A stretch of DNA of 64,000 bases from Eledone cirrhosa (GCA_964016885.1 OZ024750.1:22196001-22260000), one strand, 5' to 3'. Numbered from the stretch's first letter, positions 2,849 through 63,980 are shown. A program made the numbers and translations. Notes: generated from the letters alone by a model not told the origin.

Positions 2849-4379
2849 ATATATATATATTTATATATATATATTTATATATATATATTTATATATATAT
2901 ATTTATATATATATATATATATTTATATATATATATTTATATATATATATTTATATATATATATTTATATATATATATATATATATATATATATATATAT
3001 ATATATATATATATATATATATATATATATATATATATATATATATATATATATATATATATATATGTGGTATTAGTCTTACGCTTTCAACAAAACTGCA
3101 AGTTTCATAGGCATTCTTCGTCAGGACAGTTATTCTTAGTTACAAGATGCAATTCTAATAATGGAGAATAACTGTCCTTACAAAGAATTCCTTTGAAGTT
3201 CGCACTTTGTTTAAAGCCTGCAACTAACACGCTGTATTAACACACACACACACACACTCACATATATATATATATATATATATATATATATATATATATA
3301 TATATATGTGTGTGTGTATGTATATATACATATATATATGAGTATATATATATGAGTATATATATATATATATATATATATATATATATATATATATATA
3401 TATATATATATATATATATAAATGAAAGGTAGAGTTAATAACTCATACTGAAACCCTGTAATTAACAAGCTCAAAGTATAAATACTGAGCAGTATAACAA
3501 TAATATATGTAGTAATAAACACAGTAAATCGTGTGTCTAATATTACGAGGGTTGAAGAACCACATTTATTTGAAATATTTAACCATGAAGCAGACAGAAT
3601 GATAAAAATAAAAATAAATTATATAGACCACCTCAATAACAATTACGGATAAATTAGGGATTAATCTGTTTCGCCCTGAGTGTGTTTGTAACAGATAATC
3701 CACGGACATCATCAGCGAGAGAATCTGATTAAATGCGACAAACACCTAATACTAACGTTCACACAGCAAAATGAATTCTTCACCTCGTGTGCCGTAAGTC
3801 AAAAGTGGTGTGAGTGTATTGGTCAGAAATAACACACACATATATATATATATTGGAGAAAACCACGTGTCTGTGGCGACCTTTAAAGTTACAACATACC
3901 CGCTTTGGCTAAGAACGAAAGACTTACTGAAGAAGTAAATCCTATGTTCTGTCGTCAAAAACCATTATATTGCAGACTCCTGCAATAGGAATTTGTCGAT
4001 CTTGGATTTGCAGAAACTTAGTGCTGATGTTGGATGTGATATTGTGATCTATATTGTGGATATACGATGTAAGTTATATATTTTACACTCAGCCTCACCG
4101 TTATGTCCAGGTCAGAATAAAATCTTTTCCTGGGTCATGTATTTTCGTTGCTCTGGTAATGCGGTTGGACTGCCGACTGCTATATCTGATTTGCTAAGCT
4201 GTCTGAACGTAATGTTATTACTCTGGGGTCTTATCCGAGTGCTAAAGCTACAGACCGATTATGCATATATGCTAGCTTGGCCGTATACTAAAGCTTCGTC
4301 AATACTGTACTAAAATTTATATATATATATATATATATATATATATATATATATATATATATATATATATATATATATA

Positions 4380-4466
4380 CAGGATGTCCCCAAAGGATGT
4401 ATACACACGTCAACAGCGCTTCTAATAAATAAGTGTAATATGTATATACATTTTTTGGACACCCTG
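4380..4466. mobile_element. 87-bp Tc1/mariner-type MITE
   Basis: About 27-bp imperfect TIRs CAGGATGTCC...GGACACCCTG, flanked by TA inside (TA)n. Confidence 0.8.
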
Positions 4467-4665
4467 TATATATATATATATTTATATATATATAGTATAA
4501 AAGAGAAAACACAGGTAAGCATTAAGAGAAGGATTTTATCCAGGTATTTACGACCGTTTCATTGGTAAGTGATATATATATATATATATATATATATATA
4601 TATATATATATATATATATATATATATATATATATATATATATATATATATACATATATATAATA

Positions 4666-4882
4666 AAGAAGGTGTGGTAGGTAAGATACCAAATGAACCA
4701 TAACGCCCGAGAGTATTCGATAGTTAAGGTAGTAGAGTGGGTGATAGAGAAAGAATCAGGACCCCAACGGCTGAGCTCCGACTGTTTCGACAGCAAAATC
4801 CGAACTAAACCACTAGTATTGAATACTGTCGGATCTAGCTGTCGAAACACCCGGCTGTCAGCCGTCGGGGTCCTGACTCTTT
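4666..4882 (-). mobile_element. Fold-back Penelope-like terminal element, family B (diverged)
   Basis: Similar to 7003-7213 and 15829-16039; inverted arms about 4755-4803 and 4829-4880; in (TA)n. Confidence 0.65.
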
Positions 4883-5566
4883 ATATATATATATATATGC
4901 GTGTATCTGTGTAGCCTTACCGTAGTTCTCGGGGGAAATTCACTATGACAACGTGTTCGGTAAGGCTGCCCATTTGCTATAACTCATTTTTTTTCTTCTT
5001 TTGTTGACTGTGCTGGAGCAATGAGAAATATAAATTGTCTTTCTTAAAGACACAATGTGCTGTCGGGAATCGAACTCATAACTTTACAATCGTGAGCCGT
5101 ACCCCGTAATTACTAAGTCACGTACCTTCACTAAACAATGCTAAACACTTAACGTACTGCTAGTGTTGCAGAATAAAACAAACCATCAGCAAGTATTATA
5201 AATGTTTAGAATGATGAAAACGTGATAACTTACATTTTTACTGCTGAAACTACAAGATATTGTTAATATTCCCAAGAGAAAGCAGACAGAAGTATAGACA
5301 GAAGTACGACTATAGACAGAAGTAAACGTATAGAAAGTTAAATCTATGACAGCTGCATGCATGGCTGTGGGATTAAGTCATTCACAATACAACCTCGTGG
5401 TTCTGAGTTCTATCCCATTGTTCGGATTTCTGTTGTCTGTGCGAGAGAGAAGGTGTGTGTGTTTGTGTCTGTCTGTATGCCTGTGCCAGTTTCTGTCTGT
5501 GCGTGTGTATATCTATATGTATGAATATGGACAAGAATATATAAGTATGACTATAGATAGAAGAGT

Positions 5567-5810
5567 GGAGGCACGTGGCCTAGTGGTAAGGGTGTTGGAC
5601 TTACGATCATAATGTCGTGGGTTCGATTCCTGGGTTGCGTGTTGTGTTCTTGAGCAAAACACTTCATTTCACGTTGCTCCAGTATACTCATCTGAAAAAG
5701 AGTACCAGTAATAGCTGGGGGTTTAACCCTTCGATGGACTGGCGTCCTATCCAGGGGGAAGTCTTGTACTCTCAGTCGCTTCATGCTATGAAACCGGGAT
5801 AAGCACTGAC
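5567..5810 (+). mobile_element. tRNA-derived SINE (family S3)
   Basis: TGGCCTAGTGG A-box, GGTTCGATTCC B-box, 3' ATGGACTGGCGTCCTATCCAGGGG. Copies at 50288-50500 and 53790-54050. Confidence 0.85.
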
Positions 5811-61400: not shown

Positions 61401-62599
61401 GTTTTGCTGCACGTTTTGCTGCACGTTTTTTTTCTTACACGTTGTTCCTATGCATTTTATCTACATGTGTTTTTGTTACACGTGTTTTTCCTAGATTTTT
61501 TCCATGAATGAAAGGAATGTCCAACTCATCATTAACTACTTACATTATGCTTATAGTTGAGATATATTTACAATTCTATTAGCTTAATCGACATAATCTG
61601 TCGAAGAAAGCAACATCTGCCCATAAATATTTAAGGTACCGCCCAGATATTTAAATTTCACAAATTTGGGGAAAAATTAATTCTTTAAAAGTACAAACTC
61701 ACAAAAAGAGAAACATAATACAATAGTAATGGAAATGCTGTTGATAAAGTCACATCGCTTTAACCCTTTATTTCTTGTTAACCATTATTGACGCTTCTAA
61801 TACTATAGTCTTTTGGGGGATTCTTTACGTTTGAAGAAATGTATGTGTGTGTATCTATATGTGTATGTGTCTGGTGGTGGTCATGGTGGTGATGGTGGTA
61901 GTGTTGTTGATGGTCGTGGTGGTGGTGGTGGTGGTGGTGGTAGTGGTGATGGTAGTCATGGTGGTGATGGTGATGGTGGTGGTTTTGGTGGTCGTTGTGG
62001 TGGTCATGTTGGTCATGGTGATGTTGGTGATGTTGGTGATGATGGTGGTGATGGCGGTGATGGGGGGGATTCTTTACGTTTGAATAAATTCGGTACTTGA
62101 ATTTCCCGCTAACTCTCGGTGAGCGGGAGGGGGGGGGGGGGGGGGTTAGCCTGACACTGTGATAAAGTTGGCCCTTTGAATCACAGGTGCAACTCATATT
62201 TTCCAACTGAGTGGACGACTAGAGCAACGTGAAATAAAGTATCTTGCTAAAGAGTACGTCGAACAACCGGGAATCGAACTCATAACCTTATGATTGTGAG
62301 CCGAACTCCTTAACTTCCCCTATACCACACGACTTCACCCAGGTTCTATAGTATTGTCTATAGTATTTACAATACAGTTCTATATCATTATGTAGCATCT
62401 GTAGTATTTATAATTCAGCTGGAGTTTGCTTTTTTAATGTAGCTCATTTTATACTTATAACATTTTTAGATCACTGAGTTAATGGTGTCTTTTCCTCACA
62501 GTATAAGTGTTATTAATTAAATTTGTAATACCCTCTAGATTAAATATGTTAACACTAACTTAACTACTTATTATTTATTAGTATTAGCTTAGTATTGGT

Positions 62600-62687
62600 T
62601 TACATGTCTTCGCGCCTCATTTCCGTATAACTCTGTCCTACTAAATCTGACACTGAGCTAAGGTCATAGAAATTATGAGAGCCACAT
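62600..62687 (-). CDS. Possible terminal coding exon of an upstream gene
   Basis: Pyrimidine tract and AG, then CGSHNFYDLSSVSDLVGQSYTEMRREDM-stop; no partner exon in the window. Confidence 0.25.
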
Positions 62688-62980
62688 CTTAAATTGAGAA
62701 AGAAATTAAAAAAGAAACAAATAAGTAAAGAAAGAAAGAAAGAAAGAAAGAAAGAAAGAAAGAAAGAAGTGTTCTGCTTCACTGGATAGTACAAGTTTAT
62801 AGTTATTTATGTCGGTCGGTTGCATCAGAACAGGTCCCTGCTAAACTAAATATCCAAATATATTTCAGTCTCTTTCTCTCTCTCTATATATATATATACG
62901 TATATGTATATATATATAGAGAGAGGGGGGGGCTGACAATAAGAAGTCTGAATTGCAGCTTCTTATGAAACTTTATTGCA

Positions 62981-63025
62981 TATTACAACTGTTTCAATAT
63001 CGATCAACTCGGGTTTCATCAGGCG
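62981..63025 (-). ncRNA. Decayed hammerhead
   Basis: CUGAUGA-AA..CGA-GUUGA-UCG..UU-GAAA-CAGUUG-UA; stem I does not pair. Confidence 0.45.
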
Positions 63026-63132
63026 ATCGGATCCCGACTCTTAAACCTGAAGCACAGCCCCACGAGAGACGGACCCCCTAACAGCATCGAGTGCTTAAAC
63101 TTTAATCTGTTATTTATATATATATATACACA

Positions 63133-63980
63133 CCAAGATATTAATAAATGGAAACTATATTTATAAAACCATATTTATTTGATTATATATATTTCAAGGG
63201 CGACCAAGCCCATCTTGGTGCGCTTTCATCAGATAAAATATAAAATTTGTTTTATAAATAACGACAAACCCATGCAAATCAACCTTAACGGTCGGAAATT
63301 CGCTGAATAGTGGAAACTTTTTACAGGTAATTCAACGTTATGTGTGAATATGCAAATGAATGTATGAAAAGTTGAAAAAACAACCGTTTATTTAAATTAC
63401 GCTGGAAAAAAGATAGGGAAGAAAGAGAAGAGAGAGAGAGAAAAAGAGAGAGAGAGAGAGAAAAAATTACAGTAATTTTCTCTCTCTCTCTCTCTCTCTC
63501 TCTCTCTCTCTCTCTTTCTTTCTCTCTCTCTCTCTCTCTCTCTCTCTCTCTCTCTCTCTCTCTCTCTCTCTCTCTCTCTCTCTCTCTCTTTCTTCTCTTT
63601 CTTCCCTATCTTTTTTCCAGCGTAATTTAAATAAACGGTTGTTTTTTCAACTTTTCATACATTCATTTGCATATTCACACATAACGTTGAATTACCCCTA
63701 AAAGGTTTCCACTATCCAGCGAATTTCCGACCGTTAAGGTTGATTTCCATGGATATGTCGTTATTTATAAAACAAATTTTGTATTTTATCTGATGAAAGC
63801 GCACCAAGATTGGCTTGGTCGCTCTTGAAATATATATAATCAAATAAATATGGTTTTATAAATATAGTTTCCATTTATTAATATCTTGGAACACTTACTC
63901 CAGTTATCTGTTGAGTGCTCTATATCAGTTATAAACACTTATGTTTGTCGGAATTCCAACAAATTAAATACAACTTCTAC
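63133..63980 (+). mobile_element. Family A fold-back element: ~750-bp palindrome (centre 63471) plus tail; hammerheads at 63176-63240(-) and 63782-63846(+)
   Basis: Arms complementary apart from scattered substitutions and (CT)n length; stem II ACCAAG/CUUGGU; tail TGAGTGCT at 63912. Confidence 0.9.

Follow-up and report, generated by a model that had tools for sequence, protein, structure and literature searches.

Several traits of the elements described here, which lie in a stretch of 64,000 nucleotides (nt) of the Eledone cirrhosa genome (GCA_964016885.1, OZ024750.1:22196001-22260000; the whole stretch is called the window below), are already known for the clade and genus of Penelope-like elements (PLEs) concerned: the hammerhead ribozyme, the TA target, the inversion and the tail. 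The paper of Craig et al. 2021 (PMC8557442) describes inverted 5'-truncated copies, one-sided tails and (TA)n targeting for the Hydra clade, gives (TA)n preference as a property of Hydra, Neptune and Naiad, and names as an open problem how PLEs make inverted repeats with one-sided tails; its supplement lists Hydra-1_Obim of Octopus bimaculoides with (TA)n preference and a hammerhead. Work with one purified PLE protein, that of Poseidon of Anolis (PAc; Frangieh et al. 2024, PMC11167929), has shown that it cleaves AT-rich DNA on both strands and extends both; its starts are at two internal sites, which bound the tail, and its template is uncleaved RNA. The Penelope transcript starts within the pseudo-long terminal repeat (pLTR), which holds an internal promoter (PMC2377424, PMC6765202).

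Our analysis indicates that the window elements are, very probably, short pLTR-end insertions in (TA)n of several endonuclease-encoding PLE families, mostly of the Hydra clade, and that their fold-backs are likely made anew at integration, rather than copied as a unit. The class of element is already known; the remaining value lies in a sharp insertion geometry. Shared with the Hydra clade, as defined in PMC8557442, are the DKT motif, an RW-type motif, the CxCX5C linker, CxxC/CxH around the endonuclease, an open reading frame (ORF) of about 700 aa, a type I hammerhead near the 3' end, insertion in (TA)n and inverted 5'-truncated copies. In contrast to the single Octopus family listed there, many families are co-resident here at very high copy number; tails of 60-100 nt, long 3' untranslated regions (UTRs) and some variant cores (CAGA, CCGA, A8) are further differences. 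The motifs resemble published minimal hammerheads in their palindromic short helix III, the extra base before stem II, the predominance of dispersed single motifs, opposite-strand pairs 100-700 bp apart, many heterogeneous families per genome and a U3-A8 variant.

The window was scanned with three type I hammerhead descriptors (strict, minimal-hammerhead and a third one); they were tuned after the sequence had been seen, so the union of their motifs is a judged count. The strict descriptor gave 7 matches against a shuffle mean of 0.01-0.03 (300 shuffles). With the minimal-hammerhead descriptor there were 13 exact-core matches plus one variant, against no exact-core match in 80 shuffles or in the reversed window, and with the third 13 matches against a mean of 0.1 and a maximum of 1 in 50 shuffles. 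The excess over shuffled sequence, on which an earlier note (made from the sequence alone) had staked its reading, is clear. The union comprises 16 intact minimal type I motifs at 12 loci of 9 families (one motif with a CCGA core): four loci of family A and one each of B, C, D, E, F, H, J and M. The minimal layout of CUGANGA, stem II, GAAA, palindromic or short helix III, UH and stem I is found at these 16 motifs, and at least 12 families with differing stems keep both core strands, stem I and a palindromic or paired helix III. The hammerheads in the window are real; self-cutting is only predicted, and the predicted fold of helix III in the monomer is not stable. The 12 loci are listed below.

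8901..9212: fold-back of family A (Hydra PLE); the short arm (-) carries a hammerhead at 8944-9008 and the + arm, which runs into an assembly gap (N, 9213-9412), one at 9147-9211.
18721..19337: family A; long arm (-) with hammerhead 18851-18915 and tail to 18721; short inverted arm (+) 19237-19337, stem I clipped.
33143..33453: fold-back of family A; intact hammerhead 33185-33250 on the short arm (-); long arm (+) starting within stem II.
63133..63981: fold-back of family A, arms of 329 nt; one hammerhead at 63176-63240 (-), another at 63782-63846 (+, one stem I mismatch); long tail to 63981.
46231..46638: family B fold-back; short arm (-) with hammerhead 46261-46331 and 5' end at CATATG; long arm (+) with hammerhead 46421-46508, which holds a 27-bp internal duplication.
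17035..17355 (-): family C single long arm; 5' end at CATATG, hammerhead 17181-17235, 150-nt tail, no inverted self copy.
17349..17637 (+): family D; hammerhead 17421-17465, short hairpin upstream.
33529..33745: family E fold-back; short arm (-) with hammerhead 33557-33603 (33560 below; stem II of 2 bp only); long arm (+) with core at 33615 and mutated stems.
54402..54713: family F; short arm (-) with hammerhead 54446-54511, then a tail-only long arm (+) 54565-54713; self-complementarity almost nil.
49338..49520: family H fold-back; hammerhead core at 49390 (+), helix III of 3 bp, weak stem II.
38803..39115 (+): family J single long arm; hammerhead 38859-38912; part of a non-Hydra PLE (CX5CxxC linker).
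23352..23560 (+): family M arm; hammerhead-like motif 23478-23532 with a CCGAAGA core (common to 4 of 6 matches).

Intact-motif loci thus occur once per about 5 kb. About 15 further loci are cut in stem II (family G, at 4680, 7005, 15829 and 17658), have a variant core (L, K) or are decayed, as judged from homology mapping and motif counts; the earlier figure of more than 15 loci in some 10 families is reached only if such half ribozymes, variant cores and decayed copies are added. The complete layout of (TA)n, inverted copy, hammerhead, tail and (TA)n, which had been claimed for all of these, is on our reading present at about seven loci (8901, 18721, 33143, 33529, 46231, 49338 and 63133). 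The seven examples singled out in the earlier note (9147+, 17181-, 18851-, 33560-, 46261-, 54450- and 63782+) all have a type I hammerhead-like motif at the expected place and are among the 16 motifs; 17181 has no inverted self copy (the hairpin alongside belongs to family D) and the arms at 54450 barely overlap (-90..+52 and +47..+196). The loci at 38867 and 23486 are single arms. One match, at 10042 (-), was discarded as spurious because it lies inside a 63-bp tandem repeat, and five sites with CUGANGA at which the descriptors failed (54026, 54885, 31604, 31725 and 3715) were left out of the count. Comparison with Rfam hammerhead models, which had been suggested as a check, gave no match in the window at the gathering threshold, none at E<=10 on 17060-17630, and none among the best 150 of 459 matches in an E-value scan of the whole window, where microRNA models on microsatellites dominated; the window is very rich in microsatellites.

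Longer genomic copies were obtained for six families (A, B, C, E, G and J), and in every one of these they are joined to PLE ORF sequence, which bears out the earlier suggestion of tiny pLTR-only PLE insertions. PLE ORF sequence was present in 2 of the 20 first family A loci; of the 12 loci of this family with a long ORF, 11 have the hammerhead on its downstream side. The link was found for families B and E at one of 30 tail-selected loci each (L138 and L104) and for family C at L166 and L167. A full-length family G copy (L216) consists of an inverted short arm, a 5' pLTR, a 744-aa frame, a 3' pLTR and (TA)n. For family J, 6 of 20 loci have an upstream ORF of the L214 type (CIDKKCITC, VYIGET), for which BLAST gave no match to A or G. 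A genome search with family D and F queries returned no candidates and missed even the window copy, so it is uninformative.

A single ORF with YxDD followed by YVG/YIG (C-terminal GIY-YIG) is present in A (L021-L032) and G (L216), and copies of B, C and E show only parts of it. A Pfam search of two family A ORFs gave no match, so that the assignment of a reverse transcriptase (RT) and a GIY-YIG endonuclease in A and G rests on motifs; a protein search gave 38 homologues. Both families have DKT (KSDKT/HSDKT) and RLRWR, the RW-type motif being RWR and not RWK. The CxCX5C linker is found in A, C and G, CxxC and CxH around GIY-YIG in A copies and CxxC in G; by eye, no cysteine pair (CCHH) lies within the GIY-YIG core of A or G. 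Judged by these motifs, A and G carry the diagnostic Hydra-clade set, and the Neptune label chosen initially was dropped once the motifs had been compared with the Hydra-clade definition. ORF identity among A, B, C, E and G is 35-70% in the aligned parts, and the 3' UTR is about 1.1-1.2 kb in A, B, C and G. Family J belongs to another PLE clade, which would be of Neptune/Nematis type by its CX2-5CxxC linker before a C-terminal GIY-YIG. The idea that sequence-unrelated lineages had converged on (TA)n is weakened by these results: the ORFs of A, B, C, E and G are related, (TA)n targeting is a published Hydra trait, and only J represents a second clade. ORF sequence is also present in the window itself:

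12571..12982 (-): broken Hydra-type PLE ORF remnants (12571-12735 and 12851-12982), covering sequence past the RT catalytic motif; no hammerhead is joined to them.

The stretch 12565-12725, previously taken for a PLE RT fragment, matches a Hydra-type ORF (38% identity, E 4e-6) and is indeed a PLE ORF remnant; it corresponds to the region following the RT catalytic motif and is not joined to a hammerhead.

For the insertion geometry, arms from the fetched loci were mapped for families A, B, C, E and G, each on a single natural long copy, with positions given relative to the predicted cut, and a set of 130 head-to-head pairs was used from which seven loci overlapping the window or one another had been dropped. 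All five mapped families have two 3' ends: +48/+60 and +147 in A, +56 and +136 in B, +66 and +162 in C, +38 and +112 in E, and +20 and +99 in G. These ends are fixed and lie 60-100 nt apart within a family. One long-tailed and one short-tailed arm are combined in 126 of the 130 pairs, and the same pattern was seen by eye in five loci of family J; this layout likely records the element's copying mode. Junction keys were distinct in 123 of the 130 pairs; of the repeated keys, one is a duplicate within a single locus and another a perfect palindrome. Since junctions differ from locus to locus, the fold-backs are better read as insertion stubs than as a self-copying unit, and a fold-back element or MITE copied as a unit, which calls for a common internal junction, was rejected on the same count. 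Among the 114 pairs with a short spacer, the short arm reached further 5' in 17 and the long arm in 14; as either arm may do so, neither is simply a copy of the other.

Each mapped 3' end lies just before a small RCUC...GAGY hairpin. Past the distal end, at 6-9 nt, comes a second hairpin, RYUC...GAGC, and then the ORF (4 A loci and 2 G loci in full-length context), and a similar ACUC...GAGU hairpin, the first, follows the proximal end; in family A the distal end is followed by target-like ATAT. The pattern for the first hairpin missed the divergent reference of family E, and the window copy of E folds that hairpin. A tail motif, GAGU(A/G)C(U/C), was present in 8 of 8 families chosen by eye; as a universal motif it was rejected, being absent from long-tailed D and J and from clusters F3, F4, F6 and F9. 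At the other side of the arms, tail-selected samples show an accumulation of 5' ends at CATATG: 32 of 81 arms of B end at -124/-125 and 13 of 38 arms of C at -164..-173. A pile-up at the ribozyme cut site was sought and not found: ends at 0..+2 numbered 0/23 in A, 3/81 in B, 0/38 in C, 1/52 in E and 3/83 in G.

The Poseidon PAc protein offers a biochemical parallel (PMC11167929), with two internal RT starts comparable to the two fixed 3' ends, an AT-rich target and copying of the whole ribozyme. It belongs to another clade, however; here the distal start lies before the ORF, with the target-like ATAT after it in family A, and the strict pairing of long and short arms is read from genomic copies only, whereas the PAc results were obtained in vitro. 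In a literature search that took in few subscription papers and was made without Repbase, neither the long and short pairing nor the CATATG pile-up was found (the hairpin motif was not specifically searched), nor was a genome-wide hammerhead count for any octopus; the term 'twin priming' was not found in the PLE literature searched.

The association with (TA)n holds beyond the window. A (TA)4 run lies within 200 nt downstream of 10 of 13 window motifs (null 0.30) and of 28 of 32 motifs in random genomic DNA (null 0.18), and arm 3' ends adjoin (TA)>=3 in 249 of 277 arms. The random sample consisted of forty 10-kb stretches (400 kb) of the 3.0-Gb genome, scanned with the third descriptor; it was drawn from contigs other than the small and some of the mid-sized ones. 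Its 32 motifs, against 0-1 in shuffles, extrapolate to about 240,000 motifs genome-wide (bootstrap 127,000-360,000), which suggests a very large hammerhead load. This is far above the published 2,000-9,000 for schistosome, coelacanth and Xenopus, although the descriptors differ and cleavage is only predicted here. Motif density in the window is about 2.5 times that of the sample (13 per 64 kb versus 32 per 400 kb), and about 2% of resampled 64-kb sets reach 13: the window is rich in motifs, but no special locus. First-look candidates in the genome numbered 3,664 for family A and 22,916 for RT, the latter not being a copy number; candidate copies run to hundreds or thousands, with differing junctions. 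One random-sample locus, L171 (8389-9009, -), holds three head-to-tail 310-bp units, each with a hammerhead, and resembles a retrozyme array.

A course of events consistent with this geometry would begin with the PLE protein nicking both strands of a TA run. Two complementary DNAs (cDNAs) would then be primed on opposite strands, at two internal RNA sites each just 5' of a small RCUC...GAGY hairpin. If priming occurs at the 5' pLTR copy of the messenger RNA (mRNA), the cDNA would run out after 100-300 nt at the RNA 5' end (CATATG) or stall at the ribozyme, and the two cDNAs would be joined head to head. Because the hammerhead lies 20-160 nt from the putative priming sites, even the shortest stubs carry it. 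The ribozyme itself would be a passenger, predicted to be buried in a long duplex, and inactive, in fold-backs; in folding calculations the penalty on the ribozyme fold is 58-97 kcal/mol in 5 fold-backs versus 4-8 in two non-fold-back loci. We put forward more tentatively, with somewhat less than even confidence, that the stubs form a genome-wide record of double priming, in which the protein would read two small RCUC...GAGY hairpins of the leader RNA, start a cDNA ahead of each, the two on opposite strands of a nicked TA run, and extend as far as the transcript start, leaving about 10^5 hammerheads, some of them U4- or G8-variant. A single RNA layout would then account for tail, inversion and stub length. 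From the young and abundant families come precise predictions of priming sites, together with candidates for an RNA signal and for transcript starts, and many short perfect intronic hairpins may constitute double-stranded RNA substrates.

Several observations weigh against the reading as pLTR-end insertions joined at integration. The samples are the best-scoring copies and hence biased to young ones. Tip deletions of a perfect palindrome could also give asymmetric arms, which weakens the result that either arm may reach further 5'. Arms of G mostly end at -30..-57 inside stem II, with only 3 of 83 at its CATAT site, and family A has no clear 5' pile-up (n=23, divergent subfamilies). CATATG need not be a transcript start: a strong stop for the RT, or a palindrome at which joining takes place, could account for it. 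The hairpin motif is missing from the long-tailed copies of D, J and four other clusters, tails of 60-100 nt are longer than the published 30-40 nt, the ORF links of B and E come from one locus each, and the long copy of E belongs to a divergent subfamily.

Of the other explanations, formation of the inversion from one cDNA that folds back (by self-priming or a template switch, possibly on an antisense template as proposed in PMC3846280), with asymmetry arising from later tip deletions, is unlikely, though it has points in its favour. Arms end within 15 nt of each other in 83 of the 114 short-spacer pairs, some being perfect palindromes at CATATG or AAATTT. Palindrome tips are, moreover, prone to deletion. 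By itself, however, such a process explains neither the fixed internal stop of the second arm in 126 of 130 pairs nor the solitary short arms with a (TA)n junction of their own; 17 pairs hold short-arm sequence missing from the long arm, and with the one PLE protein that has been purified both target strands are extended, from two starts (PMC11167929). It is quite improbable that some families are protein-free non-autonomous elements or retrozyme monomers, self-transcribed and moved in trans by PLE proteins. In favour of this, most B and E copies are tiny (of 30 tail-selected loci, one in each family reaches an ORF), all 40 scored matches of B tails show 99-100% identity, a stub from CATATG to tail would hold an internal promoter if it were Penelope-like (PMC2377424), a head-to-tail hammerhead triple of 310-bp units exists at L171, and a preprint (bioRxiv 10.64898/2026.07.22.740005) argues for an origin of retrozymes from pLTRs. 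Non-LTR retrozymes (PMC7761336 and the same preprint) are likewise short, non-coding and pLTR-related with a type I hammerhead; they form head-to-tail arrays of 150-300 nt units, however, whereas the window elements are single or head-to-head with unique junctions. Against such protein-free units, junctions are unshared between loci, each of the six families for which there are long copies reaches ORF sequence, head-to-tail hammerhead arrays are absent from the window, and normal mRNA primed at the 5' pLTR already accounts for short products. The non-autonomous retrozyme-like unit offered in the earlier note is accordingly not supported, on the grounds of the 123 distinct junctions in 130 pairs and the lack of a head-to-tail array in the window; movement in trans could still apply to D, F, H, K, L, M and I, which stand outside the set with ORF links, and this too counts against pLTR-end insertion as a general account.

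Hammerhead self-cleavage as the cause of the short 5' ends, with cleaved or circular RNA as template, is very improbable: 3 of 81 B arms do end at 0/+1 of the predicted cut and circular templates have been proposed (PMC4209133), but ends at 0..+2 are rare in all five families, most arms include the whole ribozyme, so that their templates were uncut, and ribozyme mutants leave insertion in vitro unchanged (PMC11167929). Chance matches in AT- or hairpin-rich DNA, the elements being miniature inverted-repeat transposable elements or assembly artefacts, could be argued from the lack of an Rfam hammerhead match, from several weak stems and from the one fold-back that adjoins an assembly gap. This reading is already refuted, and its probability is practically nil: shuffled and reversed controls are near zero, at least 12 families with different stems keep the core strands, helix III and stem I, candidate copies in the hundreds to thousands have different junctions, and there are ORF links.

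The window also contains variant and broken copies. Family L is abundant; its fold is hammerhead-like, and among 30 pattern matches 21 have the core CAGAAGA (U4 to A). Helix III is of 4 bp and stem I of 5 bp, and standard hammerhead descriptors miss the family. The core of family K is CUGA-AA-GA in 3 of 3 matches. The full-length family G hammerhead (L216, L190 and others) has A at position 8, a stem II region of 60 nt and a 5-bp helix III, position 3 being U in 5 and C in 8 of 13 copies. At 17658..17756 a CTGATGA was rejected as a hammerhead core, since it is junction sequence overlapping GAAA. These further loci are as follows.

7005..7214: family G (Hydra PLE) fold-back; both arms cut within the long stem II, first core strand missing (half ribozyme).
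15829..16037: half-ribozyme fold-back of family G.
4680..4881: half-ribozyme fold-back, related to family G.
17658..17756: small fold-back related to family G.
16320..16606: fold-back of family K; at 16467-16559 (+) a hammerhead-like motif, CUGA-AA-GA core, 61-nt stem II region.
18530..18690 (-): arm of family L; at 18549-18601 a hammerhead-like motif with stem I of 5 bp and a CAGAAGA core (U4 to A).
21169..21236 (+): arm of family L; motif with CAGAAGA core at 21169-21221.
16630..16744: fold-back of family L, with a mutated core that reads CAGAAAA.
32270..32500 (-): family I, an older one; the motif at 32434 is hammerhead-like and fails the descriptors; homologues elsewhere.
19445..19740 (-): decayed copy from a further hammerhead family (cluster F14).
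18259..18425 (+): decayed short arm from a further hammerhead family (cluster F12).
3066..3235 (-): old fold-back with 73% arms; the two core strands are present at 3124, the descriptors fail, and the fetched loci include no homologue.
13330..13640: fold-back divided by (TG)n; each arm has both core strands (13368+, 13617-), stem I is unformed, and the fetched loci include no homologue.
22030..22100: decayed fold-back, family H relative.
62935..63115 (-): decayed arm, hammerhead-like, with its core at 63022; it has homologues elsewhere.

Insertions of different families nest next to one another within one TA run at 17035-17637, 33143-33745 and 62935-63981 and at many fetched loci, and each nested insertion leaves new TA-flanked targets. 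Fold-backs whose window copy has no hammerhead core lie at 34432-34732, 40621-40703, 13891-13984, 13027-13129 and 47671-47787. A TA-flanked 590-bp repeat family with no hammerhead match is found at 11664-12231, 43157-43750 and 48642-48852.

A probable host gene with splice signals occupies 32650-51520 (-), with exons at about 32650-32932, 37945-38303, 40075-40437 and 51385-51500 and one weak CUB match (E 0.027); five hammerhead loci would consequently be intronic. At 27780-31325 (-) there is an uninterrupted 1181-aa frame with an RT (Pfam RVT_1, E 5e-23), a C-terminal restriction-like endonuclease motif and (TAT)n at both ends, which we take to resemble an R4/Dong non-LTR element. Dong-R4 is listed as recently active in O. 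vulgaris. Two abundant families resembling short interspersed elements (SINEs) are present, one at 5555-5806, 50277-50502, 53809-54050 and 47120-47247 and the other at 7860-8052, 39271-39436, 41750-41944 and 55798-55988, and a tRNA-like Rfam match lies at 47186-47243. Four copies of a 63-bp unit at 9842-10092 resemble an internal part of a SINE-like repeat.

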